Origin: an uncultured Chloroflexia bacterium
Lineage (GTDB): Bacteria; Chloroflexota; Chloroflexia; QHBQ01; JADMIH01
NCBI GenBank assembly: GCA_963797095.1
Contig: CAWCNY010000002.1
Location: forward strand, 576,001 to 640,000
Reading direction: 5' to 3'
DNA length: 64,000 bases
The position numbers and the translations under genes are program-made. Below the pieces are notes generated by a model. It searched no databases. It saw only the letters and a program-made list of their open reading frames with translations, and was not told the DNA's origin. Positions 26,823 to 49,957 of this stretch are shown here, piece by piece. The stretch's first letter is position 1. Each line of letters opens with the position of its first letter.

Positions 26823-28142
26823 ATGAGCAAAGTGCTGGCGGTTATTTTGGCGGGCGGCCAGGGTGAGCGCCTGAGCCTTTTGTCCGAGAAGCGTGCCAAG
26901 CCTGCGGTGCCGTTCGCTGGTAAGTACCGCATCATCGACTTCGCCCTGAGCAATTGCGTCAACTCCGATATTTACGACGTGGCTATCCTCACCCAGTACC
27001 GGCCCCATTCCCTCAACGATCACATCGGCATAGGCAAGCCATGGGACCTCGATAGGCGGCGGGGAGGGGTGCATCTACTTCAGCCATACGTTGGCCTCCA
27101 GGAGGCGGACTGGTACCAGGGTACGGCGGATGCGGTATACCAGAACCTCGACTTCATCATGGAGAGCAAGGCCGACTATGTGCTGATACTGGCGGGCGAC
27201 CATATCTATCGCATGGACTACAGGCCCATGATCTCTTTCCACCAGGTGCACTCGGCTGATGTGACCATGGGGGCTGCGGTGATACCTATAGAGGAGGGCT
27301 ATCGCTTTGGGATCTTGGAGACAGACTCTCAGGGGCAGGTAGTGTCGTTCGAGGAGAAACCGCCGGAACCTAAAGGCACGCTTGGCTCGATGGGCATATA
27401 CGTGTTCAACCGGGATGTACTGGCGAGGGTGCTGATGGAGGACGCCAGGACCCAGAGCAAGCACGACTTCGGGCGCAACATCATCCCTGGTATGCTGGAG
27501 CGCCGCGAGCGGGTGTTTGCCTTCCCGTTCAGCGGCTACTGGCAGGACGTGGGCACGGTCCAATCTTACTGGGAGACCCACATGGATCTGCTGGAGGAGA
27601 AGCCCGCGTTCGACCTGTACGACCGTTCGTGGGTGGTTCATACCCGCTCCGAAGAGCGGCCTGCCGCCCATGTGGAGCGTGGGTCGCGGGTGAGCAGAAG
27701 TCTGATCTCTCATGGGTGCATCATCAAGGGACAGGTAGAGCAGAGTGTGTTGTCTCCCGGTGTGGTGGTCGAGGAGGGGGCGGTGGTGCGCGGCTCTATC
27801 GTCTTCTCAGGGACGGTTATAGGCGCGGGCAGCGTGGTTGACCGCTCGATCCTCGATAAGGAAGTGGTGATCGGGCGCAACTGCCGGGTTGGGTATGGCG
27901 ACGACATGGCCCCCAACAAGCAGGAGCCGGACAGGCTGAACACCGGTATTACGCTGGTGGGCAAGCGTTCGCGCCTGCCCAACGATTTGACTGTGGGACG
28001 CAACTGCAAGATAGGCACCGACCTTACGCCGGAGGACTTCCCCGGCGGCGCGCTGGCGAGTGGCGAAACGGTAGAAGATAGAAGGTTTGCGCATGGTTGG
28101 GAGCGGGAAATGGCCCGCCGGGTTTTGCGTACTCGACCGTAG
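26823..28142 (+). CDS. glgC: Glucose-1-phosphate adenylyltransferase (ADP-glucose pyrophosphorylase)
   Basis: GGQGERL...RAKPAVPFAG, WYQGTADAV, LAGDHIY, FEEKP, left-handed beta-helix tail. Confidence 0.95.
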   Translation: MSKVLAVILAGGQGERLSLLSEKRAKPAVPFAGKYRIIDFALSNCVNSDIYDVAILTQYRPHSLNDHIGIGKPWDLDRRRGGVHLLQPYVGLQEADWYQGTADAVYQNLDFIMESKADYVLILAGDHIYRMDYRPMISFHQVHSADVTMGAAVIPIEEGYRFGILETDSQGQVVSFEEKPPEPKGTLGSMGIYVFNRDVLARVLMEDARTQSKHDFGRNIIPGMLERRERVFAFPFSGYWQDVGTVQSYWETHMDLLEEKPAFDLYDRSWVVHTRSEERPAAHVERGSRVSRSLISHGCIIKGQVEQSVLSPGVVVEEGAVVRGSIVFSGTVIGAGSVVDRSILDKEVVIGRNCRVGYGDDMAPNKQEPDRLNTGITLVGKRSRLPNDLTVGRNCKIGTDLTPEDFPGGALASGETVEDRRFAHGWEREMARRVLRTRP

Positions 28143-28211
28143 AGCAGCCAGGTAGAGGAGCATAAGGTAGGTAGATAGCAGCAAGAGCAGGCAGAAAGGA
28201 CGGGTCGCGCC

Positions 28212-29522
28212 ATGAGTAAAGTACTGGCGGTAATTCTGGCCGGTGGCCGGGGTGAGGGGCTGTCTGCCCTCACGGAAAGGCGCTCGGAGGCGGCGGTGCC
28301 GTTCGCTGGCAAGTACCGCATCATCGACTTCGCCCTGAGCAACTGTGTCAACTCCGATATTTACGATGTGGCTGTGCTCACGCAGTACCAGCCGCAATCG
28401 TTGCGAGACCACATCGGCATCGGCAAGCCGTGGGACCTCGACAGGCGGCAGGGGGGTGTACATCTACTCCAGCCCTACATCGGTCGCCAGGAGTTGGGGT
28501 GGCAGAAGGGCACAGCGGACGCGGTGTACCAGAACCTCGACTTCATCATGGAGAGCAGGGCCGACTACGTGTTGATACTGGCGGGCGACCATATCTATCG
28601 TATGGACTACAGGCCCATGATCTCTTTCCACCAGCAGCGGGGAGCGGATGTTACGGTTGGTGCGGTGGTGGTGCGCCCTGAGGAAGGGTACCGCTTTGGC
28701 ATACTTGAGACCGATGCCGGGGGGCGGGTGGTGTCGTTCGAGGAGAAGCCGGGACAACCAAGAGGGTCGCTTGGCTCGATGGGTATATACGTGTTCAACC
28801 GGGAACTGCTTGCCCGGGTGGTGGTGGAGGATGCGGACGACGAGTCAAGCAGGCACGACTTCGGGCGGAATATCATCCCCGGCATGCTAGCGAGGGGCGA
28901 TAAGGCGTATGCATACCCGTTCACGGGCTACTGGCAGGACGTAGGCACTATAAAGGCCTACTGGGAGGCGCACATGGGCTTGCTTGAGGAACAGCCCGCA
29001 TTCGACCTGTACGACCCCGGCTGGGTGATCCACACCCTGTCAGAGGAACAGCCCCCCGCCTACATACACGATGGCGACCTGGTAACTGAGAGCCTGATCT
29101 CGCACGGGTGCATTATTAAAGGACGTGTGGAGCAGAGCGTGTTGTCTCCAGGTGTGGTTGTTGAGGAGGGGGCGGTGGTGCGCAATTCCATTGTCATGTT
29201 CGATACGGTGATTGGTGCGGGGAGCGTCGTGGACCGGGCGATCCTCGACAAGGAAGTGATCGTTGGCCGAAATTGCAGGGTTGGGTACGGCGACGACATG
29301 GCCCCCAACAAGCAGGAGCCGGATAAACTGGATACGGGCGTGACTGTGATCGGCAAGCGCTCGCACCTGCCTGATGGATTGACGGTGGGGCGCAACTGCA
29401 AGATAGGGGCGGGGGTGCACCCTGAGGATTTCCCCGGCGGCACCCTGGCGAGCGGCGATACGGTAGAGAACCGCTCGTTTGCCCACAACTGGGAGCGCGA
29501 GTTGGCTGCGAGTAGCGAGTAA
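28212..29522 (+). CDS. GlgC paralog with degenerate catalytic loop (GlgD-like)
   Basis: Very similar to the upstream glgC, but GGRGEGL...RSEAAVPF replaces GGQGERL...RAKPAVPF. Confidence 0.85.
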   Translation: MSKVLAVILAGGRGEGLSALTERRSEAAVPFAGKYRIIDFALSNCVNSDIYDVAVLTQYQPQSLRDHIGIGKPWDLDRRQGGVHLLQPYIGRQELGWQKGTADAVYQNLDFIMESRADYVLILAGDHIYRMDYRPMISFHQQRGADVTVGAVVVRPEEGYRFGILETDAGGRVVSFEEKPGQPRGSLGSMGIYVFNRELLARVVVEDADDESSRHDFGRNIIPGMLARGDKAYAYPFTGYWQDVGTIKAYWEAHMGLLEEQPAFDLYDPGWVIHTLSEEQPPAYIHDGDLVTESLISHGCIIKGRVEQSVLSPGVVVEEGAVVRNSIVMFDTVIGAGSVVDRAILDKEVIVGRNCRVGYGDDMAPNKQEPDKLDTGVTVIGKRSHLPDGLTVGRNCKIGAGVHPEDFPGGTLASGDTVENRSFAHNWERELAASSE

Positions 29523-29590
29523 ATAAGCAGTAAGCAATACGAAGCACGCAGTACGAGATGATCTCGTATCACAGGCAAAGGGGTGCACAA

Positions 29591-30820
29591 TTGGCAGAGT
29601 TGAACAAAGTTGCGATCTTTACCAAAGAGTATCCGCCCTATGTATATGGCGGCGCTGGGGTGCATGTGGAGTACCTTTGCCGCGAGCTATCGCGCCTGGT
29701 GCCCGTTGAAGTACGCTGCTTTGGCGACCAGGATATTCACGAAGGCAACCTCACGGTTAGGGGCTACAGGGAGTGGGGTGAGGCCAAACAAAACACCGAT
29801 CCGCGCTTCGCTGGCGCGGTGGACGCCTTCGCGCGCGACCTTGCCATGGCTAAGGACAACCTCGATGCCGGAATCGTGCACTGCCACACATGGTACGCCG
29901 ATATGGGCGGCCTATTGGCGGGCACGCTGTGGGGCGTACCCTACGTGCTGACCATACACTCTCTGGAGCCGTTGCGCCCCTGGAAGGTGGAGCAGCTCGG
30001 CAACGCCTACCACCTCAGCGCCTGGATGGAACGGACGGCCATCGAGCAGGCAGACGGTGTGATCGCGGTTTCCAGCGAAACGCGCGAGGATGTGCTGCGG
30101 CTCTTCAACGTCAAGCAGGAGAAAGTGCACGTCATCTACAACGGCATCGACCCCGACGAGTACCGCAAGACCGACAAGACGGACGCGCTGGTCCGCTACG
30201 GCGTCGATCCAGACAAACCTTTCGTGCTCTTCGTGGGGCGCATCACTCGCCAGAAGGGAATCATCCATCTGGTCAATGCGGTGCCTTACCTGGACCCCTC
30301 TTTGCAGGTGGTGTTGTGCGCGGGTGCCCCCGACACGCCGGAGATAGGGCGGGAGATGGCCGAACGGGTGCAGGCTGTAAGCGCGGATCGCCGGGGCGTG
30401 ATCTGGATACAGGAGATGCTAGCCCGTCCCGACGTGATCCAGATGTATTCGCGCTCGGCTGTTTTCTGCTGCCCATCGGTGTACGAGCCTTTCGGCATTA
30501 TCAATCTCGAAGCGATGGCCTGCGAAACGGCGGTAGTGGCCTCGGCGGTCGGCGGCATTAAAGAGGTGGTTGTGCCCGGCGAGACAGGTGTGCTGGTTGA
30601 CCCGCACTTGCGAGAGGGTACATTCGACCCTGAAGACCCAACACAATTCGCCCGCGACCTGGCCGAAGCGATCAACCGCGTGGCGCTGGATGACAAACTC
30701 CGAGCCGAATACGGTCATAACGGCAGACAGAGGGTGGAGGAGCACTTTAGCTGGGCGGCAATCGCCGAGCAGACACTTGCGCTCTATCGCACCCTGGTTG
30801 AGCAGGGTAAGAAGGTGTAG
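29591..30820 (+). CDS. glgA: GT4 glycogen synthase of the actinobacterial GlgA/GlgM type
   Basis: TKEYPPYVYGGAGVHV, HCHTWY, HSLEPLRPWK, GRITRQKG, SVYEPFGIINLEAMAC; TTG start after AAAGGGG. Confidence 0.9.
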   Translation: MAELNKVAIFTKEYPPYVYGGAGVHVEYLCRELSRLVPVEVRCFGDQDIHEGNLTVRGYREWGEAKQNTDPRFAGAVDAFARDLAMAKDNLDAGIVHCHTWYADMGGLLAGTLWGVPYVLTIHSLEPLRPWKVEQLGNAYHLSAWMERTAIEQADGVIAVSSETREDVLRLFNVKQEKVHVIYNGIDPDEYRKTDKTDALVRYGVDPDKPFVLFVGRITRQKGIIHLVNAVPYLDPSLQVVLCAGAPDTPEIGREMAERVQAVSADRRGVIWIQEMLARPDVIQMYSRSAVFCCPSVYEPFGIINLEAMACETAVVASAVGGIKEVVVPGETGVLVDPHLREGTFDPEDPTQFARDLAEAINRVALDDKLRAEYGHNGRQRVEEHFSWAAIAEQTLALYRTLVEQGKKV

Positions 30821-31058: not shown

Positions 31059-31841
31059 ATGTCGATGAACGGAAACAGAATGAGCACCGCGACCATTATT
31101 CTTATAGTGGTAGCGGCCCTTGTTGGCTTCTTCTTCGGCACCGCTATAGATGCCGAAATAGGCAGCGTGGTGATTACCGGTAACGTGCTTTGGGGGCTTG
31201 TCTTCGCGGTGGTGTCGGCAGCCCTGGCCTACCTGGTCAGCACGCGCACCGACCGCACCGAGGTGACAGTTGAGGAGAATGGCTTGAGCCATTTCCTGTT
31301 CAAGGACCCGCGCTCAGGCGTTCTATGGCTGCCCGTGCGTGTCTTTGTGGGCCTCGATTGGGTGACTGCCGGCCTGCACAAATTAGGATCGTCCAGTTGG
31401 ATGAACGGTGGTGACGCCCTCAAGGGATTCTGGCAGAATGCCGTAGCGGTCCCCGATCCCCCCGCACACGCAGCTATCACCTATGACTGGTGGCGCAATT
31501 TCCTGCAGAGCCTGCTCGATAGCCAGGCTTATACCTGGTTCGGACCAGTGATCGCAGTAGGCGAAACATTGGTGGGACTGGGCCTGATCTTCGGGGCGCT
31601 GGTTGGAATAGCTTCATTCTTCGGTATCATGCTGAACACCAGCTTCCTGCTGTCAGGCTCGACCAGCAGCAACCCTATTCTACTGTTGCTCGGTATCTTG
31701 CTGATCCTGGCATGGAAGGTCGCAGGATGGATCGGGTTAGATAGGTGGCTGCTGCCTGCCCTCGGCACACCCTGGCACAAAGGCGCGTTGCTGGGCGGCA
31801 GGGTCGCAACACCCGCCCCGTCTGACTCCGGATCAGGGTGA
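31059..31841 (+). CDS. DoxX/TQO-family membrane protein
   Basis: LWLPVRVFVG..W..AG..K, GETLVGLGLIFG, AGWIGLDRWL; AGGAGG RBS. Confidence 0.8.
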   Translation: MSMNGNRMSTATIILIVVAALVGFFFGTAIDAEIGSVVITGNVLWGLVFAVVSAALAYLVSTRTDRTEVTVEENGLSHFLFKDPRSGVLWLPVRVFVGLDWVTAGLHKLGSSSWMNGGDALKGFWQNAVAVPDPPAHAAITYDWWRNFLQSLLDSQAYTWFGPVIAVGETLVGLGLIFGALVGIASFFGIMLNTSFLLSGSTSSNPILLLLGILLILAWKVAGWIGLDRWLLPALGTPWHKGALLGGRVATPAPSDSGSG

Positions 31842-33311
31842 TGAGTAGTTTCTAACCAGGGCGCGCAGAACCGCGCCTCTGCCCACTGCCCCAAGCAGCC
31901 TGCCGGATGCATCAACTACTGGTAATAGCTTAATCTCGCGCTGCACCAGCAAGCGCACAGCTTCGCCTATCGGGGTGCTGTCGAGGGCTGTCACCACGTT
32001 TTGGCTCATGATGTCAGCGGCTGTGCGTATCTGCATACGGTAACTATCTTGCTGCGCAGGAAGCACTTCGCGCTGCTGTTGTGGGGTGAGCCGCCCGAAC
32101 GGAATACTCTCCCTCAGCATACGCAGCAGACCGGGCCTGGTCTGTGCGTGCTCCCTCATGACCAGGTCCCGGTCGGCCACTATGCCGACCACATGCATGT
32201 GCTCCCTGCTGTCTACCACAACCAGGCGTCGCGGGCAGGGTGGGGTGATCAGCATCTCCACCACTTCGTGGTGGATTGTACCGGCTGTCACCACAGGAAC
32301 GTTCCTGTCGAGTATGTCGCCGAGGCGAATGAGGCGCTGGGGTTGCTCGTTGGTCAGATCTTCGCCATCTATACCTGCCTGTGGGAAGATGCTACTTGCT
32401 GCTTTCAGTATATCCAATCTCCCGATTATGCCGACCATCCGGTCAAAAGAGTCTACCACCGGGACACGTTTTATTCCCTTTTCCGCCATCAATTGAGCGG
32501 CCTCCAGGGCTGTCGTTTGTGGCGAGATAGTGACCAGAGGGCCCGTGCTCATGAGGTCGCGGGCCAGCAGATGAGAGGAACGCAGGTCACCCAGGATCTC
32601 CTGGAAACCGCTCTCCCCGCTCGCCTCAAGGGCCTCAAGTATGCTCAATCTGTACGGCAACCGGCCCTTTTCCATGAGGTCCCCATCGGTTATCATCCCG
32701 ACCACTCGATTATCTCGGTCCACCACCGGCAGGGTCTTGTAGTACTTGCCGAGCAGCATCCGGACTACATCTGCCGCCGAAGTAGCTGGGTGTACGTATA
32801 CAACATGCCTCTCCATGAGATCCGCCACTGACGGTGGCGGGGTGCTCGGTGCACCGGGCGAGCCAAGCAAGCTGCCTGTCTGGCGCTTACCTCCGGGCAA
32901 GCTGGGGTGCAGGTAGCGATGGGCCTCAAGGTCCTGGACGGTGATCAGCCCGCCATTTACGCGCACCATAGCCTCCAGTAGCGGGAGCATCGGTTCCACC
33001 CGCCAGGCGGCATCCACGATGATAATTACCAGGGGCAATTTCTGCTGTAGATCGGCGAAACCGGAGGTCTGTATCGTGTGGCTGGAAGCGCTGTACCCGG
33101 CCAGCCCTTTGAGAACTGTAGCTCCCGCCGAGTTATGCTCTCTGGCTAATTCGAGGATCTTCAGGTAGAGGGGCTTGCGCTCGTAGTGGTCGGTCTCGCT
33201 GATAAAGATCGTCAATTGCTGCATCCGCTCGTAGCCATATCCAGGCTTTTGTTGTGAGCTCGTTTGACCGGAGCCTTCTTCTTGATCCGGCTTTTTAAAA
33301 TCATCGATCAT
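31833..33311 (-). CDS. DUF190 (PII-like) domain fused to four CBS domains
   Basis: LTIFISETD...GATVLKGLAGY...LPLVIIIVD, then LPVVD..VGMIT.GDL, RVPVVD, LVVVD, LLPVVD CBS motifs. Confidence 0.85.
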   Translation of the reverse strand: MIDDFKKPDQEEGSGQTSSQQKPGYGYERMQQLTIFISETDHYERKPLYLKILELAREHNSAGATVLKGLAGYSASSHTIQTSGFADLQQKLPLVIIIVDAAWRVEPMLPLLEAMVRVNGGLITVQDLEAHRYLHPSLPGGKRQTGSLLGSPGAPSTPPPSVADLMERHVVYVHPATSAADVVRMLLGKYYKTLPVVDRDNRVVGMITDGDLMEKGRLPYRLSILEALEASGESGFQEILGDLRSSHLLARDLMSTGPLVTISPQTTALEAAQLMAEKGIKRVPVVDSFDRMVGIIGRLDILKAASSIFPQAGIDGEDLTNEQPQRLIRLGDILDRNVPVVTAGTIHHEVVEMLITPPCPRRLVVVDSREHMHVVGIVADRDLVMREHAQTRPGLLRMLRESIPFGRLTPQQQREVLPAQQDSYRMQIRTAADIMSQNVVTALDSTPIGEAVRLLVQREIKLLPVVDASGRLLGAVGRGAVLRALVRNYSSP

Positions 33312-33324
33312 CGTTCTATGTGCC

Positions 33325-33417
33325 TCATAACTTCCTGCGGACCATGCCTGAAGAACGCCGTGCGCCCAGGATCATAGCACCTACGATCCTACCTGATGCC
33401 GTCCACAAAGCATTCGT
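33325..33417 (-). pseudogene. Possible internally deleted crcB/fluc remnant
   Basis: ACG-NALWTASGRIVGAMILG...GMVRRKL* directly upstream of DUF190; loosely resembles the Fluc N- and C-termini. Speculative. Confidence 0.3.
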
Positions 33418-33533
33418 TATTAGCAGTGTAAATATAACACCGCAACGATGCAAAGCGAAACCCTTAATTGTGGGGTTGTGTAACCTTTGTTTTGCAGGCA
33501 ACTCACTGAAGTAACGAGTTGTGCCACACGGCT

Positions 33534-34397
33534 TTACCGCAAATTGAGCAGCGTCGGCAGGCTTCCCGCCGCTTGCTCTACGCTGCGTGCAGGCGCTTTA
33601 AATTCATCCCCGCGCGGCTCGTCCGAGTACCTGTAGTCATATTTACGCACTACTTCGGCCAGTTCTGCTACGGTCCTTTCCATCCTGGCTCGCTGGGCTT
33701 GCACAAGCACCCTCACGAGTGCATCAGAGGCAAGCAGACGCAGCACCCTACGAAAGTGCGGCAGGCAGAGTCCCACCTCGTGCTTCCGGTACGCTTCCCT
33801 GAATTCGCCATGTGTAAGCCCCCTGGCAAACGCATCGGCCAGGTCCTTCTCTCGCTTGACGGTGTATTCGCACGCCGGGCAAGGCGCTTGAGGCTCCAAT
33901 GCTGCCGCCAGTGTGGGGCCAACATCCAAATCTCTGCGGCCATTGCCGCTATTGCTGAGAAACTTCTGCAACTTGTCCATAAAGCTCTCGTCGCCCGTAC
34001 CCGCAATCACCTCATCATCATTCTTCCGGCTGCCTGCTTTACCCGATGGAGCAACATACACTTGCAAGACATCCAGCACATGGCTCAGCACATCGCGCCA
34101 GATTATGGCCGTGCCGAGCGTATCTTGCAGACGCAGCCATTCCTGCCCATGTACCGCGCAGTAGCCTAATGCCTTGCGTAACCCGGCCCTGATATCCAGG
34201 TCATTTACGCTCTCGTATGAGATGCTATCCAGGTAGTTGACCACTCCTTTGTGCACAAGGTGGCAGATGGGGCAGTGCGCGCCCCGTTGTTGCAAAGCCC
34301 GCAAGAGGTTGGATTCGGTTTGGTTCATAGAGCCATCCGCACCGGTAGATAATTCCCCATCTCTATTCCGGCTTGCGTTATCACGGCTTGCTGTCAT
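33534..34397 (-). CDS. DUF6062-like protein with duplicated CxxC...CxxH motifs
   Basis: CPIC...YESVND..R...GYCAVH; CPAC...GLCLPH; KYDYR. Confidence 0.72.
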   Translation of the reverse strand: MTASRDNASRNRDGELSTGADGSMNQTESNLLRALQQRGAHCPICHLVHKGVVNYLDSISYESVNDLDIRAGLRKALGYCAVHGQEWLRLQDTLGTAIIWRDVLSHVLDVLQVYVAPSGKAGSRKNDDEVIAGTGDESFMDKLQKFLSNSGNGRRDLDVGPTLAAALEPQAPCPACEYTVKREKDLADAFARGLTHGEFREAYRKHEVGLCLPHFRRVLRLLASDALVRVLVQAQRARMERTVAELAEVVRKYDYRYSDEPRGDEFKAPARSVEQAAGSLPTLLNLR

Positions 34398-34887
34398 AGT
34401 TACCACCTACCTGCTTCCCATCTGCCTGTGCTACAGGGCGATGTTGCCCGTGATGGAACAGCACCTTATCCATCACGAGTACAAGGTATATAAGCTCCTC
34501 AATCTCAGGGTCAAGCGCCGGTGAAAGAGCAGGATTTACGCTGCCGTACCGCCGTAGCTTATGCGATCTGGTATCTTCCAGGTTAGCCCACATCTCAACC
34601 AACCTGCCGTGCGCCTCTTTCGCCAGGTCAGCCGTTTCAGGTTCGAAGCCGAACCTGCCGGCAAGTCGCTCTATAGCTGCGCGTGCCCTCAGCACCAGGC
34701 CCGCCAGGTGGGCACGTTCTTCCGGGGTCAGGGGATTGACGACCGAAACCATGATCCCTTCCCTTGTCCCCTCTGGTTCTGTGCAAAGCTGCTCCACGCT
34801 GAATAATATCCGCTCAAGCATACGAAGCGTGACGCTTACCCCTTGAGCCTGATATGGAGATAAGATGGCGGAGCCGGACTCTTCCAT
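34381..34887 (-). CDS. Hypothetical alpha-helical protein (first gene of riboswitch operon)
   Basis: ATG 34887 after AGGAAG; overlaps the start of the next gene; WANLED...KLRRYG motif. Confidence 0.65.
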   Translation of the reverse strand: MEESGSAILSPYQAQGVSVTLRMLERILFSVEQLCTEPEGTREGIMVSVVNPLTPEERAHLAGLVLRARAAIERLAGRFGFEPETADLAKEAHGRLVEMWANLEDTRSHKLRRYGSVNPALSPALDPEIEELIYLVLVMDKVLFHHGQHRPVAQADGKQVGGNYDSKP

Positions 34888-34914
34888 ACTGCACTTCCTG
34901 CATTCGCAACAAAC

Positions 34915-34952
34915 AAAAAAGCCTCTACCACTGCCGCAGGCAGTATAGAAGC
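34915..34952 (-). terminator. Intrinsic terminator of the riboswitch expression platform
   Basis: Minus strand GCTTCTATACTGCC-TGC-GGCAGTGGTAGAGGC-TTTTTT overlaps the aptamer 3' pseudoknot strand. Confidence 0.8.
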
Positions 34953-35009
34953 CATCAGGACCTTGTCCGAGCAGTTGCCACAGGAGCAACTACGGCGGGC
35001 CTCATCACC
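34946..35009 (-). ncRNA. Fluoride (crcB motif) riboswitch
   Basis: Minus strand GGTGATGAGGCCCGCC...AACTGC...CTGATGGCTTCTA; P1 and the GAGGC/GCTTC pseudoknot match the crcB consensus; followed by a terminator. Confidence 0.85.
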
Positions 35010-35055
35010 CGGTCAAGTTGTGTGCGCTTACCGCATACAAATCTCCCCTGGCAAT

Positions 35056-35085
35056 AGTCTACGGCAAGAAACGTGCCCCCGTCAA
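35056..35085 (-). promoter_or_regulatory. Sigma70 promoter driving the riboswitch transcript
   Basis: TTGACG-N18-TAGACT on the minus strand, about 45 nt upstream of the aptamer. Confidence 0.6.
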
Positions 35086-36808: not shown

Positions 36809-38096
36809 ATGAAGAATCTGACTTAAAGGAAAGCCCAGGATCATAATATTAGGCGGAGGCTTTGGTGGTCTAGAGGCCGCTCTCTATCTGCGAGCACGCA
36901 TGCCCGATCAGGCCGACATCACCATTGTTTCCGACAAAGACTACTTCCTCTTCAAGCCCAACACCATCTACATACCTTTCGGCCTCGACCCTCGCAAGCT
37001 CCTCGTTCATCTATCGAAGCCTGTCCAGCGCAGAAACATAAATCTCATCAACGCCAGCGCCCGCGAAATAGACCCCATCTCCAGGCGCGTCTATTTCGAT
37101 AGCCACACCGACCTCCCCGACCTCTCGTACGACTATCTCGTAGTCGCCACAGGCGCGGAGATGCGTCCTGGTGCCATCCCCGGCATGAGCCAATACTCCC
37201 ACACTATCAGCACCACCGCCGACATGCTCCAACTGCGCGAGGCCTTCCACCACCTCCTCGACGACCCAGGCAGAGCGCGCACACGAAAAGTGCTATTCCT
37301 CGTCCCGCCCAACAACAAGTGCTCCGGCCCCCTCTACGAAATGGCGATCATGCTCGATACCTGGCTCAAGCGCAAGAGAGCGCGCCATCAAATAGACATA
37401 ACCTGGTCCACATACGAGGAGAGCTACCTCCAGGCTTTTGGCCCCCGCCTGCACGAAGTAGTAACCCGCGAGTTCCAACAGCGCAACATCACCGGGTACA
37501 ACAGCTATGTGGTCGACAGAGTAGAAAAAGGCCAGGTCGTATACAAAAACGACCAGAGCCTCCCCTTCGACCTGCTGGTCTCCTTCCCACCTTACGAAGC
37601 CTCATCGCGCTTCCTCCATCTCCCCATTGACGAGCGCGGTTTCATAGCCACCAACCTCGAATCAAGGCAGGTGGTCGGCTATCCCGGCGTCTATGCCGTG
37701 GGCGATGCCTCCGACTTCCCCGTAAAACAGGCGTTCCTCGCCTTCCTGCAAGCCGATGCCGCCGCCGACCACCTGAGCGCCGAGATACTTGGCACCGCGC
37801 CCGCTGTGGCGTTCGAGCCTTCCAATCTCTGCATCTCAGATGAGTCCGACGACTACCGGCTACCGGCTACAGGCAACTCGGAACCTGGAACTCGGAACAA
37901 TGAACTCGGAACAATGCGCCCTGATGTCAACCATCTGTACAAGGTAGGCTCGTCGCCGATCTGGCGGCTTGGCAAGATGGCCCTGGGCCTCTATCTACCC
38001 TGGCGTTTCAAGGCAGACAACCCCTTCTACGCCAATGTCCCCTGGAAAGGGATCGAGGCGGGCGTCAAGCTCATGTCGGGTCCGGCGTCTCGCTAA
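36809..38096 (+). pseudogene. Sulfide:quinone oxidoreductase-like FAD-dependent oxidoreductase, frameshifted near the start
   Basis: The dinucleotide motif KPRIIILGGGFGG (36831-36869) lies upstream of the track start. ATG 36809 joins it only if one T at 36823-36824 is removed. KCSGPLYE and YAVGD are SQR-like. Confidence 0.7.
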
Positions 38097-38121
38097 TTCT
38101 CAACGAAATATATCGCCTCCA

Positions 38122-38175
38122 TTAACGCAATTTCTACCTATTTTCACCAATTCTTCTACCTTAAATCTTCATACT
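38122..38175 (+). promoter_or_regulatory. Direct-repeat regulon promoter (cyd operon)
   Basis: TTAACG 38122, TCTACC 38133, TTCACC 38143, TCTACC 38155, 9-nt gap, CATACT 38170. Confidence 0.65.
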
Positions 38176-38374
38176 GAATGTGGCCTGCTCGCCTGGCTTG
38201 AGCAGGCTGCTTAATTGAGGCATGGTCATAAATACCAATTACGCACAATTTGACGCTCACGATGTGGTCTGAATAGAGCCAAAATACGCGGTTCGGCTCA
38301 CTATCTGATCCGTCGCCACGCGTGAAAAATGAATTATGACCATGCCTCGCTTAATTCTTCTAAGGAGGCGCAAC

Positions 38375-39769
38375 GTGAGTGCGTTGGATTTGTCCCGGTG
38401 GCAGTTTGCCATTACCACCATTTACCACTTCTTCTTCGTGCCGCTTACCCTGGGCCTGTCTCTGCTCGTTGCAATCATTCAGACCCTCTACTTCCGCACC
38501 GGCAACGATACCTATAAGCGTATGGCTCGCTTCTGGGGACGGCTCTTCATAATCAACTTCATCCTGGGTGTTGCCACGGGCATCGTGCAGGAGTTCCAGT
38601 TTGGCATGAACTGGTCTGAGTACTCCCGCTTCGTTGGCGACATCTTCGGCGCTCCCCTGGCGATCGAAGCTCTACTCGCTTTCTTCCTCGAGTCCACCTT
38701 CATCGGCATCTGGGTGTTCGGTTGGGACAAACTCGGCAAGCGCCTGCACCTCGCCTCTATCTGGTTGGTGTGGCTCGGCAGCAACATCTCCGCGTTCTGG
38801 ATCCTCGCGGCCAACTCCTTCATGCAGGAGCCTGTGGGCTACACGATCCGCAATAGCCGCGCTGAAATGACCGATTTCTTCGCCCTCCTGGGCAACCCCA
38901 ACCTGTGGGTGCAGTTCCCCCATGTCGTGATGGGCGGCATCGCCACCGCTGCCTTCTTCGTCCTCGGCATCAGCGCCTATCACCTCCTGCGCAACCGCCC
39001 CGGCACCGACACCGATTTCTTCCGCCGCTCAGCCGTTGTCGGCATCGTCGCCGCCGTCACTGGTAGCATCCTGGTGGCTATGGTAGGCCACACCCAGGGC
39101 CAGCACATGGTTGAAACGCAGCCGATGAAAATGGCCGCTGCTGAGGCTCTCTTCACCGACGAGTCGCCCGCAAGCATGTCTATCTTCACCATCGGCAACG
39201 AGCAAGACCGTACCGATGTCTTCTCGATCCGCATACCCAACCTCCTCTCGATCCTGGCCTACAACCGCCCTGAGGGACTGGTCCAGGGCATCGACACTCT
39301 ACAGGCCGAATACCAGCAAAAGTATGGCCCCGGCGACTACGTGCCCCAGCCGATCTGGCTCATCTATTGGAGCTTCCGTGCGATGGTCGGTGCTGGCGTG
39401 CTGATGATCCTGCTAGCCATTCTCGCCCTCATATTCTTGCTGCGAGGCACGCTGGAGAAGCGGCGCTGGCTCCTGTGGCTCCTCCCCTTCGCCATCGCCC
39501 TCCCCTACATCGCCAACACCGGCGGCTGGATCATGACCGAGGTTGGCCGCCAGCCCTGGATAGTAAACGGCCTGCTGAGAACCGCCGATGGCGTGTCGCC
39601 CATCGGGGCAGGCTCCGTGCTCCTGTCGCTGATCCTCTTCACGGTCATCTACGGGGCGCTCGCGGTGGTCGATGTTTACCTGCTGGTGAAGAATGCCGGG
39701 GCCGGAGGTGCCCAGAGCGCGCCAACAACCGAAGCAGGCGCCGAGCCTGAGCTGGTTGGAGCTTATTGA
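38375..39769 (+). CDS. cydA: Cytochrome bd oxidase subunit I
   Basis: LSRWQFA...HFFFVP, QEFQFGMNWS, QPMKMAAAE, EVGRQPW; GTG start after AGGAGG. Confidence 0.97.
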   Translation: MSALDLSRWQFAITTIYHFFFVPLTLGLSLLVAIIQTLYFRTGNDTYKRMARFWGRLFIINFILGVATGIVQEFQFGMNWSEYSRFVGDIFGAPLAIEALLAFFLESTFIGIWVFGWDKLGKRLHLASIWLVWLGSNISAFWILAANSFMQEPVGYTIRNSRAEMTDFFALLGNPNLWVQFPHVVMGGIATAAFFVLGISAYHLLRNRPGTDTDFFRRSAVVGIVAAVTGSILVAMVGHTQGQHMVETQPMKMAAAEALFTDESPASMSIFTIGNEQDRTDVFSIRIPNLLSILAYNRPEGLVQGIDTLQAEYQQKYGPGDYVPQPIWLIYWSFRAMVGAGVLMILLAILALIFLLRGTLEKRRWLLWLLPFAIALPYIANTGGWIMTEVGRQPWIVNGLLRTADGVSPIGAGSVLLSLILFTVIYGALAVVDVYLLVKNAGAGGAQSAPTTEAGAEPELVGAY

Positions 39770-39874
39770 TATCAACAAAGGGCTGCTAAGGGGTGCGGAG
39801 TGTCGCCCGACTTTCCTCCTCCTGATTACAGCCCTTTCGGAAGGGATTGGTAATAGACCAAAGGAGTTAACGCA

Positions 39875-40888
39875 ATGGATCTGAACACTTTCTGGTTCAT
39901 CCTGGTCACAGTGTTATTCATAGGCTTCTTCTTCCTCGAAGGCTTCGACTACGGGGTGGGTATCCTCCTCCCCTTCCTGGGGAAGAACGACGCCGAGCAA
40001 AGGCAGGTCATCTCAACCATCGGCCCTTTCTGGGACGGCAACGAAGTGTGGCTCCTGACCGCGGGCGGCGCAATCTTCGCGGCCTTCCCCAACTGGTATG
40101 CCACCCTCTTCAGCGGCTTCTACCTGCCGCTCTTGCTGGTGCTCATTGCCCTTATCCTGCGCGCTGTCGGCTTCGAGTTCCGCAATCGCGAGGAGCGCGC
40201 AAGCTGGCGCTCCTTCTGGACCTGGATGATCTTCGGCGGGAGCATATTGCCCGCCCTCCTGTGGGGCGTCGCCATCACCAACATCATGGAAGGCGTGCCA
40301 ATCGACGCCAAGATGCAGTACGTTGGCGGTTTCTTCAACCTGCTCAACCCCTATGCCCTCCTTGGCGGCCTCACCTTCGTAGTTCTCTTCGCCTTCCACG
40401 GCGCGGTCTTCATGACCCTTCGCACCGAAGGCCCCATGCTTGAGCGCGCCAAGAACACGGCCAATCGCCTCTGGCTCCCCACTGTGGTCCTGGTGCTCCT
40501 CTTCGTGGCTGGTGGCTACTTCTTCACCGATATCTTCACCCGCCTCGGCGTGAACCCCGGTGTCGCCCCCGTTGGCGCGGCTGCCGCCCTCCTCGCCGCC
40601 CGGTGGTTCCTCAGGAACCATCGAAGCGGCTGGGCCTTCGGCATGACCGGCCTCACAATCGCACTCGCCACTCTCACAATCTTCCAGGGCCTCTACCCGC
40701 GTGTGATGATCTCCAGCCTCGACCACGCCTTCGACCTCACCGTCTACAACGCCTCCTCCAGCCCCTACACCCTCGGCGTGATGAGTTGGATCGCCATAGG
40801 CTTCGTGCCCGTTGTCCTCGCCTACCAGGCCTGGAACTACTGGGTCTTCCGCAAGCGTATAGGCGCTTCCCCTGAGGGCCACATCTGA
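39875..40888 (+). CDS. cydB: Cytochrome bd oxidase subunit II
   Basis: LEGFDYGVG, PFWDGNEVWL, LTVYNASSSPYTL. Confidence 0.97.
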   Translation: MDLNTFWFILVTVLFIGFFFLEGFDYGVGILLPFLGKNDAEQRQVISTIGPFWDGNEVWLLTAGGAIFAAFPNWYATLFSGFYLPLLLVLIALILRAVGFEFRNREERASWRSFWTWMIFGGSILPALLWGVAITNIMEGVPIDAKMQYVGGFFNLLNPYALLGGLTFVVLFAFHGAVFMTLRTEGPMLERAKNTANRLWLPTVVLVLLFVAGGYFFTDIFTRLGVNPGVAPVGAAAALLAARWFLRNHRSGWAFGMTGLTIALATLTIFQGLYPRVMISSLDHAFDLTVYNASSSPYTLGVMSWIAIGFVPVVLAYQAWNYWVFRKRIGASPEGHI

Positions 40889-40897
40889 GAGGTGCTA

Positions 40898-40928
40898 TTG
40901 CCGGTCACAATGTCCCCGTGACCGGCAA
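40898..40928 (+). promoter_or_regulatory. Intercistronic hairpin between cydB and cydD
   Basis: TTGCCGGTCAC-N9-GTGACCGGCAA. Confidence 0.5.
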
Positions 40929-40954
40929 CCTGCCCTCGGCAAGCGGTGATTGCC

Positions 40955-42769
40955 ATGAAACCCGACAAAAGACTTCTCCACCTTACTGGTAATTTACGCG
41001 CCTACCTCCTCGCTACCTCCACGTTGGGCGCGCTGGTTGGCTTAGCGGCAGTGGCGCAGGCTCTCTGTGTCAGCCAGGTCGTTGGCGGCGTTTTCCTCGG
41101 CGGTGCCGCATTTCCCCATGTAAGCCCATGGTTGTGGCTCCTCCTTGGCGTGATCGTGGCCCGCTCCCTCTTACTCCTCGTGGGTGAGGTCGCCGCCAAC
41201 AGGTCCGCCCGCCAGGCCAAGCTGCGTCTGCGCGCCCCCTTCTTCAGCCGTCTGCTGGCCTTCGGTCCCGACTACTCACGCAGTGAGCGCACAGGCGAGC
41301 TTGTCAGCGTCGCCACCGATGGCGTCGAATCTCTCGATGCCTATTTCAGCCAGTATCTACCACAGCTATTCAACACCATTCTGGTGCCCGCAATCGTTGC
41401 CGTGGCCGTCTTCAGCACCGACCTGCTTTCAGGCGTGGTGCTCCTCCTCACCGCCCCCGTCCTCCCCATCTTCATGATCCTGGTGGGCAAGCTGGCCGAC
41501 TCCCTCGCCCGCAAGCAGTGGCGCACCCTCAGCCTGATGAGCGCCCACTTCCTCGATGTCCTCTCCGGCCTCACCACCCTCAAGCTCTTCGGACGCAGTA
41601 CCATCCAGAAGGAGAAGATCGCTCAGATCAGCGAGCAGCACCGCAACGCCACCATGAGCGTGTTGCGCGTCGCCTTCCTCTCTGCCCTCGTGCTCGAATT
41701 GGCCGCCACCCTCAGCACCGCCATCATCGCCGTGGAGATCGGACTGCGCCTCCTCTACGGCGGCATACCCTTCGTTCAGGCATTCTTCGTCCTCCTTCTC
41801 GCCCCTGAGTTCTACATGCCTTTCCGCGCCCTGGGTGCCCGCTTCCACTCGGCCATGTCGGGTGGCGAAGCAGCCAACCGCATCCTCCAGATCATGTCCG
41901 ATGCCGATCAGCGCCTCCCTGCCCCCGGCACTACACATGTGGCCTCCCCGCCGCCCATGCCCGACCCGGCCAGGCAACCAATCCGCTTCGAAAACGTCTT
42001 TTACTCCTACGATCTCCCCGCAAGCGACACGCTTGACGACACCTCAAACGCCCAACCCACCTCAGCCGTCGATAATCGCCCCGCAGCCCTGCGCGGCATA
42101 TCATTCACCATCGAGTCTGGTAGCAAAACTGCTTTCATAGGTCCCAGCGGTGGCGGCAAATCCACCATTGCCCATCTTCTCTTGCGCTTCTCCGAGCCAT
42201 CCGCCGGTGCAATCTACCTGGGCGACACTCCCTTCGATGCCTACCCTCCCGACGAGTGGCGCAAGTTGGTTGCCTGGGTCCCCCAGCGACCCTATCTCTT
42301 CCACGCCACCGTGGCCGACAATATCCTCATGGGTAGGCCCAACGCGACCCCATCCGATCTCGAAGCAGCAGCCCGCGCCGCCCACGCCCACGACTTCATC
42401 ATATCCTTACCTCAGGGCTACCAAACCGTGATAGGAGAGCAAGGTGCCAGGCTAAGCGGCGGCCAGGCCCAGCGCATCGGCATAGCCCGCGCCTTCCTCA
42501 AAGACGCCCCAATCCTCATCCTCGACGAAGCCACCTCCAACCTCGACTCTGAGCACGAGCGCCTGGTAGTGCAATCGATAGATCGCCTCATGCAGGGCCG
42601 CACCACCCTAATAATCGCCCACCGCCTCGCCACCGTTGAGCAAGCCTGCAAAGTAGTCGTGCTGGACGGTGGCCGCATAATCGAATCGGGAAGCCCCCGC
42701 TCCCTGGCGGCCCAAAACGGAGCATACAGTCGTCTCCTCAGTACCCGGATCGGAACCGCCCACCCATGA
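40955..42769 (+). CDS. cydD: Thiol-reductant ABC exporter subunit CydD
   Basis: YFSQYLPQ, GLTTLKLFG, LAPEFYMP; Walker A GPSGGGKST, LSGGQ, ILDEATS. Confidence 0.93.
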   Translation: MKPDKRLLHLTGNLRAYLLATSTLGALVGLAAVAQALCVSQVVGGVFLGGAAFPHVSPWLWLLLGVIVARSLLLLVGEVAANRSARQAKLRLRAPFFSRLLAFGPDYSRSERTGELVSVATDGVESLDAYFSQYLPQLFNTILVPAIVAVAVFSTDLLSGVVLLLTAPVLPIFMILVGKLADSLARKQWRTLSLMSAHFLDVLSGLTTLKLFGRSTIQKEKIAQISEQHRNATMSVLRVAFLSALVLELAATLSTAIIAVEIGLRLLYGGIPFVQAFFVLLLAPEFYMPFRALGARFHSAMSGGEAANRILQIMSDADQRLPAPGTTHVASPPPMPDPARQPIRFENVFYSYDLPASDTLDDTSNAQPTSAVDNRPAALRGISFTIESGSKTAFIGPSGGGKSTIAHLLLRFSEPSAGAIYLGDTPFDAYPPDEWRKLVAWVPQRPYLFHATVADNILMGRPNATPSDLEAAARAAHAHDFIISLPQGYQTVIGEQGARLSGGQAQRIGIARAFLKDAPILILDEATSNLDSEHERLVVQSIDRLMQGRTTLIIAHRLATVEQACKVVVLDGGRIIESGSPRSLAAQNGAYSRLLSTRIGTAHP

Positions 42770-44497
42770 CAGCCGCCACCTCCCAACCAGCCACTCGTCA
42801 CTCGCCACTCGTCGCTAGCCACCCTCTCCTCCGCCTCCTCTCCCTGGCGGCCCCCCTGAAGTGGTGGCTAGCCCTCTCCGCGCTCCTCGGCCTCCTTACC
42901 GTCCTGAGCGGTGTCGGCCTCATGTCCACCTCGGCCTACCTTATCTCCGAGGCAGCCCTCCACCCGTCCGTGGCGGCCCTCGGCGTAGCGATCGTGGGCG
43001 TCCGCTTCTTCGGCATAGCGCGCGGCCTCTTTCGCTACCTTGAGCGCTACGCTTCCCACTATGTCGCTCTCGGCATAACCTCTCGCCTGCGCGTCTGGTT
43101 CTATTCCGCCGTCGAGCCGTTGGCCCCCGCCCGCCTGATTACCTATCGCGGCGGCGACCTCCTCAGCCGCGCCATCGCCGATATCGAAACCCTCCAGGAC
43201 TTCTATGTGCGTGCCGTCTATCCACCTCTTGTGGCGGCCCTGGTGGCTCTTGCTCTCTGGCTATTTCTCGGCGCATTCGACCCTCTCTTTGCCCTCACCT
43301 TCCTGGCCTTCTACCTGCTGGCGGGCATCGCCGCACCCCTCCTGGCCCACCTGCTCGGTCGCAGTACGGGCAGCGAGATCGTTACCGTTCGCGCCGACCT
43401 CAACGCTCATCTCGCCGACGGCATCAAAGGGATGGCCGACATCATAGCCTTCGGCCAGCAGCAACCCCACGTCGAGCGCATCGAATCGCTCAACCGCCGC
43501 CTCGCATCCCTCCAGACTCGCATGGCCTGGGTAAGCGGCCTCGAAACCTCCCTCGGCAGCCTCCTCACCAATCTAGCCATGTGGACCATGCTCGTAGTCG
43601 CCATCCCCCTGGTGCGTGATGGCCGCCTCGACCCCGTCTATCTGGCTACCCTGGCGCTTGCCGCTCTCGCCGGCTTCGAGGCAATCCTCCCCCTCCCCGG
43701 CGCGGCCCGCAACCTTGGCGCGAGCCTGCAAGCTGCTCGCAGGCTCTTCGAGATGACCGCCATCCCCTCCCGCTTCCCACGACCCCGAAGGCGCGTCCCC
43801 CGGGCCCCTACACTACGGCATCACAATCCGCGCCCTCACCTTCACCTACGCCGAAGGCGAACAGCCAGCCCTCGATAGCGTAAGCCTCACCATCCCGCAG
43901 GGCACCTGCCTCGCACTCATCGGCCCCAGCGGCGCGGGCAAATCGACCGTCGCCAACCTCCTCCTGCGCTTCTGGGACTATACCCACGGCGAGATAACCC
44001 TTGGCGACCGCGAACTGCGCCTCTATCAAGGCGAGGACATCCGCAAGATGATAGGCGTGGTGGCCCAAACCACCCACCTCTTCAACACCACCATCCTGGG
44101 CAACCTGCTGATCGCAAGACCAGACGCCTCCGACGATCAGATCGCCCAGGCCATCCAAAAGGCCCAGCTATATGATTTCGTGCAATCTCTCCCCCTCGGC
44201 CTCGACACTCCGGTAGGAGAGAACGGCGTCAAGCTATCGGGCGGCGAGCGTCAGCGTCTCTCGATAGCCCGCGCCTTCCTCAAAGACGCCCCCATCCTCA
44301 TCCTGGACGAGCCAACCGCCAACCTCGACCCCACCACCGAACAAGCGATCTTTTCCACTCTAAAAGACCTGGCGCAGCACCGCACAACTCTCCTGATAAC
44401 CCACCGCCTGATAGGCCTGGAAATAGCAGATCAAGTAGCAGTACTGCGCCAGGGAAAAGTGATGAAGGACGAAAGACGAAGAACGAAAGACGAATAA
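42766..44497 (+). pseudogene. cydC: CydC, split by a +1 frameshift (or sequencing error)
   Basis: TMD (VRFFGIARGLFRYLERY.SH) in one frame; NBD (GPSGAGKST, LSGGERQR, LDEPT) in the next; removing one C from CCCC at 43764-43767 restores the frame. Confidence 0.85.
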
Positions 44498-44567
44498 TCA
44501 GTAAGTAGCAACGTCGTGTCACTCGCCACTCGCCACTCGCCACTCGTCACGCGCCCTTCGTCCTTAC
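44461..44567. repeat. Heptamer repeats (GACGAAA)n and (CACTCGC)n between convergent genes
   Basis: GACGAAAGACGAAGAACGAAAGACGAA ... GTCACTCGCCACTCGCCACTCGCCACTCGTCAC. Confidence 0.8.
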
Positions 44568-44839
44568 GCTTCCCGTCTCTCCACAATAATAGTCAAATCC
44601 GCCGCCAGCGCCGCGATTGCGCCCAGCGCTGCCCACACCGGCAGCAAGATCGCGCCGACCACCCCCGCCGTCAGCGGGAACTCCGCGATGATGTGGCCTG
44701 CGTCGTTCTTCACAACGATCTTGCGCACATTCCCCTGGTGGATTAGCTCCTTGATCTTCGCCAGCAGCATATCACCCTTTACCTTGAACTCCTCTTGCTG
44801 CGTGCTCTCCTCTTTCGTAGTTGTCATCTCATCAATCAT
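44564..44839 (-). CDS. DUF4342-like small protein
   Basis: EEFKVKG..L..KIKELIHQGNVRKIVVK...PLTAGVVG...WAALGAIAAL. Confidence 0.82.
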   Translation of the reverse strand: MIDEMTTTKEESTQQEEFKVKGDMLLAKIKELIHQGNVRKIVVKNDAGHIIAEFPLTAGVVGAILLPVWAALGAIAALAADLTIIVERREA

Positions 44840-44909
44840 TTTAGATCTCCTTTAGAGGGTATGCGTCTACAACGCCGTCACCAATGGCGCTTGCGTTCCG
44901 CCACCCCTC

Positions 44910-44963
44910 ACTGTACCAGTCCCCGGTTACAAACCCGGTAACAGTCGGTATCTATCAGGTAAT
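44910..44963 (-). promoter_or_regulatory. Direct-repeat regulon promoter (DUF4342 gene)
   Basis: Minus strand ATTACC, GATACC, GTTACC, GTAACC spaced 11-10-12, 9-nt gap, TACAGT. Confidence 0.65.
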
Positions 44964-44995
44964 AATTGCCCCCGTGGGCCAACATCCCCGGCACT

Positions 44996-45049
44996 TTCAC
45001 TATTTCTTCACCTGCATTCACCGTCCCTTTCATCTCCCGGCGCTACACT
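44996..45049 (+). promoter_or_regulatory. Direct-repeat regulon promoter (hydrogenase operon)
   Basis: TTCACT 44996, TTCACC 45007, TTCACC 45017, TTCATC 45029, 9-nt gap, TACACT 45044. Confidence 0.75.
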
Positions 45050-45109
45050 GATATAGGAGTGATCCCGGCACTCCCAATCTACATGTCGAATCCATCACGG
45101 GAGGTTCCT

Positions 45110-46267
45110 ATGGTCTCATCCACATCAAAACGCCCCAGGCGAAAAAACCAAACCACTCGCTACACCATGCAAGCCGCCCACCTCGACCGGCTGTTCCAGG
45201 CGCTAAAGGATCGGGGCTACCGATTACTGGGCCCCTGTGTGCGCGATGGTGCCATCATCTATGACGAAATCCACGCGCCATCCGACCTGCCCATCGGCTG
45301 GACCGACGAGCAAGCAGGCGGCACCTACCGCCTCAAACCGCGCGACGACCGCTCCTACTTCGGCTACAACCTCGGCCCCCACTCCTGGAAGAAATATCTG
45401 CACCCTCCCATCCTGCGCCTCTGGCACGCCACCCGCACCGGCGAAGGCATAGACCTCCACGACGACACCCCCCAACCTACCAGGCGCGCCTTCATCGGCG
45501 TTCGCGCCTGCGAATTGAGCGCCATCGCCATCCAGGATCGCGTCTTTCTTGGCGATGCCTACGTAGACCCCCAGTACGCCGCCCGGCGCGAGAGCCTCTT
45601 CATCGTCGCCGTCAATTGCGGGCAGGCGGGCGCTACCTGCTTCTGCGCCTCGATGGGCACCGGCCCCAGGGCCGACAAAGGCTTCGACCTCAGCCTCACC
45701 GAAATCCTCGAAGCCGGCAGGCACTACTTCATATTGGAAACAGGCAGCCCCACAGGCACCGAGCTCCTCGCCGACATCCCCCACCACGTCGCCTCAGCCG
45801 ACGAGATCGATAGTGCCGAGCGCGTCATAACCGCCGCAGAGATGCAAATGGGGCGCACCCTCGAAACCAACGGCCTCAAAGAACTTCTATACTCCAACGT
45901 GGATAGCTCTCAATGGGATGAAATAGCCCAGCGCTGCCTTAGCTGCGGCAACTGCACCATGGTCTGCCCGACCTGCTTCTGCACCACCGTAGAAGACGTG
46001 ACCGACCTCTCAGGCCAGCAAGCCGAGCGCGTACGCAAGTGGGACTCCTGCTTCACAGTAGATTTCTCCTACATACACGGTGGCAGCATAAGAGTATCGC
46101 CCAAGTCCCGCTACCGCCAGTGGATGACCCACAAGCTAGCCTCCTGGCAAGACCAGTTCGGCACATCAGGCTGTGTAGGCTGCGGTCGCTGCATAACCTG
46201 GTGCCCGGTAGGCATCGACATAACAGAAGAAGCAGCAAAAATGCGCCAAAATGAAAGTGAAACGTGA
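45110..46267 (+). CDS. hyhB: Group 3b [NiFe]-hydrogenase beta (Fe-S) subunit
   Basis: [50 protein letters not shown]; ATG after GGAGG. Confidence 0.9.
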
Positions 46268-46357: not shown

Positions 46358-46373
46358 GAACGGAGGTAACAAA

Positions 46374-46856: not shown

Positions 46857-46860
46857 TTCT

Positions 46861-49956: not shown

Positions 49957-49957
49957 A

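Follow-up and report, generated by a model that had tools for sequence, protein, structure and literature searches.

What does a fluoride riboswitch serve when no fluoride exporter stands behind it? The question is raised by a three-gene unit in a stretch of 64,000 nucleotides (nt) from an uncultured Chloroflexia bacterium (positions 576,001-640,000 of contig CAWCNY010000002.1, assembly GCA_963797095.1), hereafter the window, to which statements of absence refer. The original prediction had described here a sigma70 promoter, a crcB-type aptamer and a terminator, followed by genes for a hypothetical helical protein (ORF1), a Cys/His-rich DUF6062-like protein and a DUF190-4xCBS fusion, back to back with enolase, and had read them as an uncharacterised soluble fluoride-response module. 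We found that ORF1 and DUF6062 are, as gene context shows, recurrent members of fluoride-switch units, and comparison of the sequences suggests that the window unit is probably a reduced version of a large regulon for fluoride stress, known chiefly from Chloroflexota. All of the described parts are present, with the three genes on the minus strand:

35056..35085, minus strand: predicted sigma70-like promoter (-35/-10, 18-nt spacer), 9/12 consensus matches
34947..35009, minus strand: putative fluoride riboswitch aptamer, a variant with an extra hairpin (covariance model and pairing); P1 35009-35006/34997-34994; pseudoknot 35003-34998/34953-34948; P2 34968-34958; extra hairpin 34993-34971; linchpin A 34955 and U 34947
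34915..34952, minus strand: intrinsic terminator, its 5′ arm covering 5/6 of the 3′ pseudoknot bases
34381..34887, minus strand: ORF1, 168 amino acids (aa), soluble and helical, with no Pfam or NCBIfam family
33534..34397, minus strand: DUF6062 protein (PF19538), 287 aa, two CxxC...CxxH motifs (probable zinc sites)
33312..33533, minus strand: intergenic gap, 222 nt, 49% GC, with hairpins and a candidate extended -10 at 33439-33431
31833..33311, minus strand: DUF190 (PII-like) + 4xCBS fusion, 492 aa
35245..36552, plus strand: divergent enolase without a switch of its own, regulon-associated in relatives

The DUF6062 gene overlaps the ORF1 stop by 17 nt, and the DUF190-4xCBS gene sits beyond the 222-nt gap, in which no clear U-tract terminator was found. 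The predicted operon is therefore firm for ORF1 and DUF6062; its extension across the gap to DUF190-4xCBS is unproven, as is the idea of adenylate signalling. All three proteins lack a clear membrane segment (maximum hydropathy over 19 residues 1.09, 1.16 and 1.64 for ORF1, DUF6062 and DUF190-4xCBS), and PADLOC matched none of them. The nearest named homologues are from Chloroflexota, and composition gave no foreign-island signal (56-58% GC vs 58%).

The leader RNA and its switch logic

A search of the window with the Rfam models, the check proposed with the original prediction, gave no match for any RNA at the gathering score, which by score alone goes halfway to contradicting that prediction. 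In E-value mode the best match was RF01734 at 34939-35018 (20.9 bits, where the cut-off is 34; E 0.0079 over 2.1 kilobases (kb), E 0.24 over the whole window). The score is low because a 9-pair hairpin, also present in most Chloroflexota homologues, is inserted between P1 and P2. The elements that define the aptamer are kept: P1 is paired at 4/4 and the pseudoknot at 6/6 positions, P2 is formed as well, and all ten core pairs are retained, one of them with a double change. For the conserved core bases other than the linchpin, we use a numbering that we take to be the accepted one. The linchpin A 34955 and U 34947 is of the A40-U48 type, whose role in the fluoride riboswitch is treated in the part of PMC8752731 that we consulted.

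Overlapping the end of the aptamer, a stem at 34952-34921 followed by a U-tract (-20.3 kcal/mol, z -2.87) forms a terminator that a simple terminator scan did not list. Its arm begins at 34952, within the 3′ strand of the pseudoknot, so that terminator and pseudoknot are mutually exclusive and the predicted logic is therefore that of an ON switch. An alignment of the window and 11 homologous leaders is in strong agreement with this reading. Pairing was found in 99.2% of 120 cells, with double changes at 7 of the 10 pairs (including 4 of 6 pseudoknot positions), a level reached by 0 of 500 shuffles and compared with 38-51% in slid controls; this support is partly circular because the leaders had been picked by Rfam or by a pattern favouring P1. 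The base of the terminator stem was paired in 96 of 96 cells (100%). We also built a model of our own from training leaders, in which the pseudoknot pairs are not encoded; nine leaders found with it outside the training set had 36/36 P1 pairs, 53/54 pseudoknot pairs and 9/9 linchpins. We regard the window leader as a fluoride riboswitch variant, and a transcriptional ON switch has strong comparative support.

The promoter-like site (-35 at 35085, -10 ending at 35056) bears out the predicted sigma70 promoter as a candidate. It is weak by itself, as 11 comparable sites occur in 7 kb vs 3.0 in shuffles; a site with at least 9/12 matches lies before the switch, within 80 nt, in 14 of 19 homologous leaders.

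The window leader resembles the crcB motif RF01734, as described in the accessible portions of PMC2864571 and PMC8752731, in its P1, P2, six-pair pseudoknot, A40-U48-type linchpin, overlapping terminator and apparent ON logic. It differs in the hairpin between P1 and P2, in its sub-cut-off score and in having unstudied families as first genes. Sub-threshold fluoride switches beside crcB are noted in the part of bioRxiv 10.64898/2026.10.21.760802 available to us, without implying identity with the subtype seen here.

Gene context of the switch in related loci

One genome scan with an ORF1 peptide motif, present in 18 of 150 family members, yielded 18 related loci, 15 from Chloroflexota and 3 titled Deltaproteobacteria; they carry L numbers below. 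At the Rfam cut-off a fluoride switch was found in 6 of these loci (7 matches). Our own model found 19 switches in 13 loci; 12 of these 19 switches are missed by the Rfam cut-off. In four of the five loci without a switch, the contig start interrupts the run of same-strand genes; the fifth is the closest relative, L001. The first gene after the switch is ORF1 in 6 of the 18 loci and DUF6062 in 4.

A neighbour tally made by hand (211 open reading frames (ORFs) chosen from about 295 candidates, plus profile and BLAST searches) gave, per 18 loci, DUF6062, gpmA-like and MFS proteins in 9 each, HEAT proteins in 8, enolase, MutS_V pairs and P-type ATPases in 7 each, a coiled-coil family in 5, pyrophosphatase in 4, DUF190 in 3, and Na+/H+ antiporters and MoxR-DUF58 in 2 each. 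Enolase stands directly behind the ORF1 homologue in 6 of 18 loci, an adjacency whose distribution over the tree of ORF1 takes 4 changes to explain, and well-supported branches force at least 2 of them. The enolase of the window, being divergent, is not under this switch. In L014, the three window families, enolase and crcB lie in one same-strand run. The co-occurrence of DUF6062 with the fluoride switch, a check proposed with the original prediction, is borne out among these loci and in one further case. A separate DUF6062 query had a single plasmid match, in Thermomicrobium roseum NC_011961.1, where a switch with the extra hairpin lies 11 nt upstream of the DUF6062-like gene and scores 52 bits with our model and 29 bits with Rfam, below the cut-off. 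This sub-threshold switch is followed by genes for the DUF6062-like protein, HEAT, MoxR, DUF58 and DUF4129 (L031:8785-13952). ORF1 and DUF6062 are thus tied to fluoride switches in many genomes, which upholds the soluble fluoride-response module as far as these two families are concerned.

Several searches bear on the lack of an exporter. Pfam identified no CrcB or CLC family member in 52 of the 53 non-nested ORFs of at least 100 aa in the window, one antisense ORF lying outside the scan. A frameshift-tolerant CrcB profile run over the whole window scored 20.9 at best. Two true genes included in the profile scored 175-182, and a 57-aa fragment outside it scored 79. A crcB remnant in the 222-nt gap was considered, since both CrcB queries align there in one C-terminal register (E about 0.4), and was ruled out: a 14-sequence frameshift-tolerant profile scored 13.0, which 315 of 1000 shuffles equalled (75 of 1000 with the end constrained), and Pfam found nothing. 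Within the window, which makes up about 5% of a contig listed at 1.37 Mb, there is thus no intact exporter, as predicted, and no detectable remnant of one. This absence had been presented as special; it is ordinary. Within the sequence available for the related loci, an intact crcB follows not one of the 19 switches, though several gene runs stop at contig ends and MFS proteins could be exporters; about 15% of Flucs are riboswitch-regulated according to the part of a review that we consulted (PMC11139923). Intact crcB occurs in 2 of the 18 loci, each time directly before DUF190; the loci also hold one crcB fragment and one CLC piece.

Several other features of these loci are recorded here. The crcB fragment (57 aa, L007:7114-7284) lies right behind the ORF1 homologue and is truncated by a convergent gene. 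Tandem pairs of ~500-aa proteins that have MutS domain V alone occur in L002, L004, L007, L013, L014, L016 (two pairs) and L017, and MoxR-DUF58 follows switches in L012 and L018 as well as in T. roseum. The unannotated coiled-coil family is found at L003:8504-9073, L006:9465-10004, L012:6800-7330, L004:2840-3244 and L014:10865-11692. Proteins of ~490 aa combine an N-terminal pyrophosphatase-like domain with an unannotated remainder (L002:4247-5698, L014:1907-3397, L018:3943-5385). Two loci titled Deltaproteobacteria (L005:2471-6858, L008:6349-10408) carry a switch, a small protein, HEAT, a prenyltransferase-like toroid, a double DUF6062 and ORF1, and L005 additionally has a distant ORF1 paralogue. 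In L001, two inverted arrays of a 7-nt repeat lie just upstream of an aptamer that looks decayed (L001:9800-9970).

Protein families of the window unit

The ORF1 family comprises 1,287 representatives at E 0.001 (clusters at 50% identity). Consistent with the predicted helical protein, its structure model is confidently helical (predicted local distance difference test score 88.9). A longer reading from a TTG at 34989 would overlap the aptamer; homologues begin at the ATG. Conserved positions include Q13, E25 (144 of 150 homologues), W100, D105 (D/E in 139 of 150) and a basic-Tyr-Gly stretch, with no conserved Cys or His. In one of the 150 representatives, P0173, an ORF1 homologue reads in frame into the N-terminal portion of an enolase. 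The idea that ORF1 corresponds to the N-terminal domain found in dynamin-like proteins was unsupported: no dynamin was found in the 211 neighbour ORFs, and none of the best 150 of the 1,287 representatives exceeded 355 aa.

The second gene is a clear DUF6062 member (PF19538, E 6.5e-19, 68.7 vs 27 bits) and has the Cys/His-rich character ascribed to it: its two CxxC...CxxH motifs, of near-constant spacing, are probably zinc sites. The internal repeat rests on this spacing, as BLAST did not detect it (E 0.49). The T. roseum protein has three Cys/His motifs. The DUF6062 model is confident (83.7) and has no clear match in fold searches; the best Z values for ORF1 and DUF6062, 7.8 (a helical hairpin only) and 5.2, reflect generic helical similarity. 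For both proteins Foldseek gave no match at E 0.001 and profile searches against solved structures gave nothing credible. Atlas searches returned hypothetical clusters only, or nothing, and plasmid searches with ORF1 and with the window DUF6062 gave no match. A predicted complex of two ORF1 copies, DUF6062 and zinc scored 0.00 in two runs and is evidence neither way.

In the third protein, profiles confirmed both domain types of the predicted fusion: a DUF190 domain (PF02641, E 2.1e-26, 92.4 vs 23.4 bits), which also matches 2dcl (E 1.6e-12) and 1o51 (E 1.1e-7), and four CBS stretches that form two Bateman modules by profile match. An Asp that we take to be the ribose/nucleotide-binding residue is kept in three of the four CBS repeats. 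The full fusion is a conserved family, of which 45 full-length members were aligned. It shares its DUF190 domain with the crcB-DUF190 pair (COG1993/UPF0166; 2dcl PH1503, 1o51 TM0021), from which it differs in being fused to four CBS repeats and in having no adjacent crcB. Its likeness to stand-alone 4xCBS proteins (PH1780 2yzq, MJ1225 3kh5, AMPK gamma) is generic CBS similarity, from which no partner or ligand can be transferred. In line with the statement that DUF190 often accompanies crcB, DUF190 is present in 3 of the 18 related loci (L004, L014 and L018), directly behind crcB in L004 and L014, and 4 of the 12 crcB genes retrieved from plasmids have DUF190 annotated next to them, within 60-80 nt. 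A plasmid search with the fusion itself gave CBS-only matches.

The rest of the window has features of its own. A hydrophobic protein without a Pfam match (31060-31841, plus strand), which we presume to be DoxX-like, is convergent with the DUF190-4xCBS gene and overlaps its end. Two tandem GlgC-like nucleotidyltransferase paralogues precede a GT4 glycosyltransferase (26823-30820, plus strand), and uvrB contains an intein carrying a LAGLIDADG domain (12551-16222, minus strand). After enolase come a sulfide:quinone reductase-like gene, a cytochrome bd cluster and a sulfhydrogenase-type NiFe hydrogenase cluster (36900-53027, plus strand); the second ABC gene of the cytochrome bd cluster shifts frame near 43800 (42766-44497, plus strand), through a frameshift or an assembly error.

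Competing explanations and significance

In the favoured reading, the window unit is probably a trimmed regulon copy. Its leader terminator, as comparison strongly supports, would form without fluoride; with Mg2+ and fluoride, the locked pseudoknot would hide the 5′ arm of the terminator and ORF1 and DUF6062 would be transcribed. Gene context shows that in relatives the fluoride-switch units also contain additional copies of Mg/phosphoryl enzymes sensitive to fluoride (enolase, phosphoglycerate mutase, pyrophosphatase), transporters for cations and pH, and ATPases (MutS-like pairs, MoxR-DUF58). Export would fall to a crcB or CLC gene, which does not have to be switch-controlled. We tentatively suggest that ORF1 and DUF6062 could be non-transporting accessory proteins of cytoplasmic damage control, which might help to assemble, protect or reactivate poisoned enzymes. 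Enolase would be the best candidate client of ORF1, because it lies directly behind ORF1 in 6 of 18 loci on separate branches and because of the P0173 read-through; DUF6062 might be a zinc-stabilised scaffold or adaptor. DUF190-4xCBS is most simply read as the partner that usually accompanies crcB, drawn from one gene pool with the other two families but here apart from crcB, and as an adenylate-binding regulator perhaps partly under its own promoter; we judge the odds of this as even. It seems rather unlikely that ORF1 and DUF6062, together with HEAT and coiled-coil proteins and MoxR-DUF58 or MutS-like ATPases, would form a repair machine that works independently of export and releases or rebuilds enzymes poisoned by Mg-fluoride (such as enolase and pyrophosphatase), with DUF190-4xCBS tuning it to adenylate charge.

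Several observations weigh against the favoured reading. The window aptamer misses the RF01734 cut-off and is filed as a structural variant rather than an Rfam member; 11 of the 19 switches belong to the training set of our model, and the first-pass regular expression favours paired P1 bases. The 18 loci are neither independent nor the whole family, because they come from one motif and 15 are from Chloroflexota. In L001 the aptamer looks decayed, with P1 (double changes) and terminator kept and the middle lost. Enolase is absent from 11 of the 18 ORF1 loci, the neighbours of ORF1 are varied, and enolase adjacency clusters weakly along the tree, 37 of 500 shuffles giving an equally low value. 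The P0173 read-through may reflect a lost stop codon and not a true fusion. None of the MutS-like, MoxR, HEAT or gpmA partners is present in the window, and neither structural nor sequence matches assign a function to ORF1 or DUF6062.

Among the alternatives, the one we take most seriously, although it is still doubtful, concerns the third gene: DUF190-4xCBS would be an orphan whose target, a Fluc channel, has its gene elsewhere; it would gate that channel according to adenylate charge and be transcribed apart from the switch. PII-transporter pairs such as GlnK-AmtB and SbtB-SbtA offer a precedent for such gating. The crcB genes that immediately precede DUF190 (L004) and DUF190-4xCBS (L014), the plasmid crcB neighbours, the 222-nt gap with its candidate extended -10, and the Asp in three of four CBS repeats all point this way; against it, L018 has DUF190 without crcB in 13.8 kb and the window has no exporter. 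This possibility is compatible with the favoured reading of ORF1 and DUF6062. The proposal of the original prediction, a single signalling module in which the three genes are transcribed together and couple anion stress to adenylate sensing, appears improbable. The genes share a strand, the gap has no clear terminator, the PII-like and CBS domains are real, and the three families share the run in L014. However, in none of the 18 loci do the three lie side by side, and the DUF190-4xCBS fusion occurs in only 1 (L014); L001 keeps ORF1-DUF6062 with a luciferase-like gene in place of DUF190-CBS, DUF190 itself is in only 3 of 18 loci, and no output domain was found. A conserved three-gene unit is thus not what these loci show.

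We give little credence to the cluster being the eroding remnant of an island that lost crcB and most partners, with enolase inverted and little present function. The full set in one run in L014, the reduction of the L001 aptamer to P1 and terminator and the crcB fragment in L007 would suit such decay, yet in the window all three genes are intact and full length against their homologues, all ten aptamer core pairs are kept, and a crcB remnant is undetectable in the shuffle comparison. Equally improbable in our view is ion handling, in which ORF1 would bind or sequester Mg/Ca-fluoride through conserved acidic residues and DUF6062 would buffer zinc. Such a role could draw on the conservation of E25 and D/E105, on the P-type cation ATPases in 7 of 18 loci and on divalent-cation transporters in fluoride operons (mentioned in the consulted part of PMC11139923), but no ferritin-like or other metal-storage fold was matched and the conserved ligands are too few for storage. 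That the leader is a variant for another ligand, or a terminator only, seems very improbable: its low Rfam score, its long insertion and a base after P2 that is altered in some homologous leaders are offset by the retained core bases, pseudoknot and linchpin and by neighbours of the classic fluoride-switch kind (crcB, enolase, pyrophosphatase, MutS-like, Na+/H+ antiporter).

The probable fluoride-stress regulon has a known parallel. As given in the part of PMC5533749 consulted, Enterobacter cloacae FRM carries on GI3 a riboswitch-led operon, ppaC-uspA-eno-gpmA-crcB-orf5249. Like it, the relatives of the window have a multi-gene fluoride response with pyrophosphatase, enolase, gpmA and crcB; unlike it, the window unit has no exporter or spare enzyme, its enolase being divergent. 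ORF1, DUF6062, HEAT, MutS-like and MoxR are not among the six FRM genes by name, the family of orf5249 being unseen in that part of the source. The FRM-type set, an exporter and spare enzymes in a switch-led transcript, is absent from the window, and the full set occurs in L014, in a run whose 5′ end lies outside the sequence available. In the consulted portions, mutS and formate hydrogen lyase were noted with the crcB motif at its discovery (PMC2864571), and enolase, pyrophosphatase and antiporters are listed in the fluoride review (PMC11139923). A literature search, most subscription papers being outside its reach, found no paper mentioning DUF6062 and none linking DUF190, MoxR or HEAT proteins to a fluoride riboswitch. 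Part of the family-switch association may already be tabulated in the gene lists of the 2012 Science paper; the link of two large unstudied families, ORF1 and DUF6062, to the fluoride switch appears to be new.

Fluoride resistance beyond export is poorly mapped, which limits organofluorine degradation and synthesis, according to the part of PMC11139923 that we consulted. The locus described here ties ORF1, with its 1,287 clusters, and DUF6062 to a defined signal, and reveals a switch subtype that the Rfam cut-off misses in 12 of the 19 copies in the related loci, for which a cultured host, T. roseum, is available for induction work. The recurrence of ORF1 and DUF6062 behind the switch points to a so far unstudied part of the response to fluoride stress that does not depend on export.

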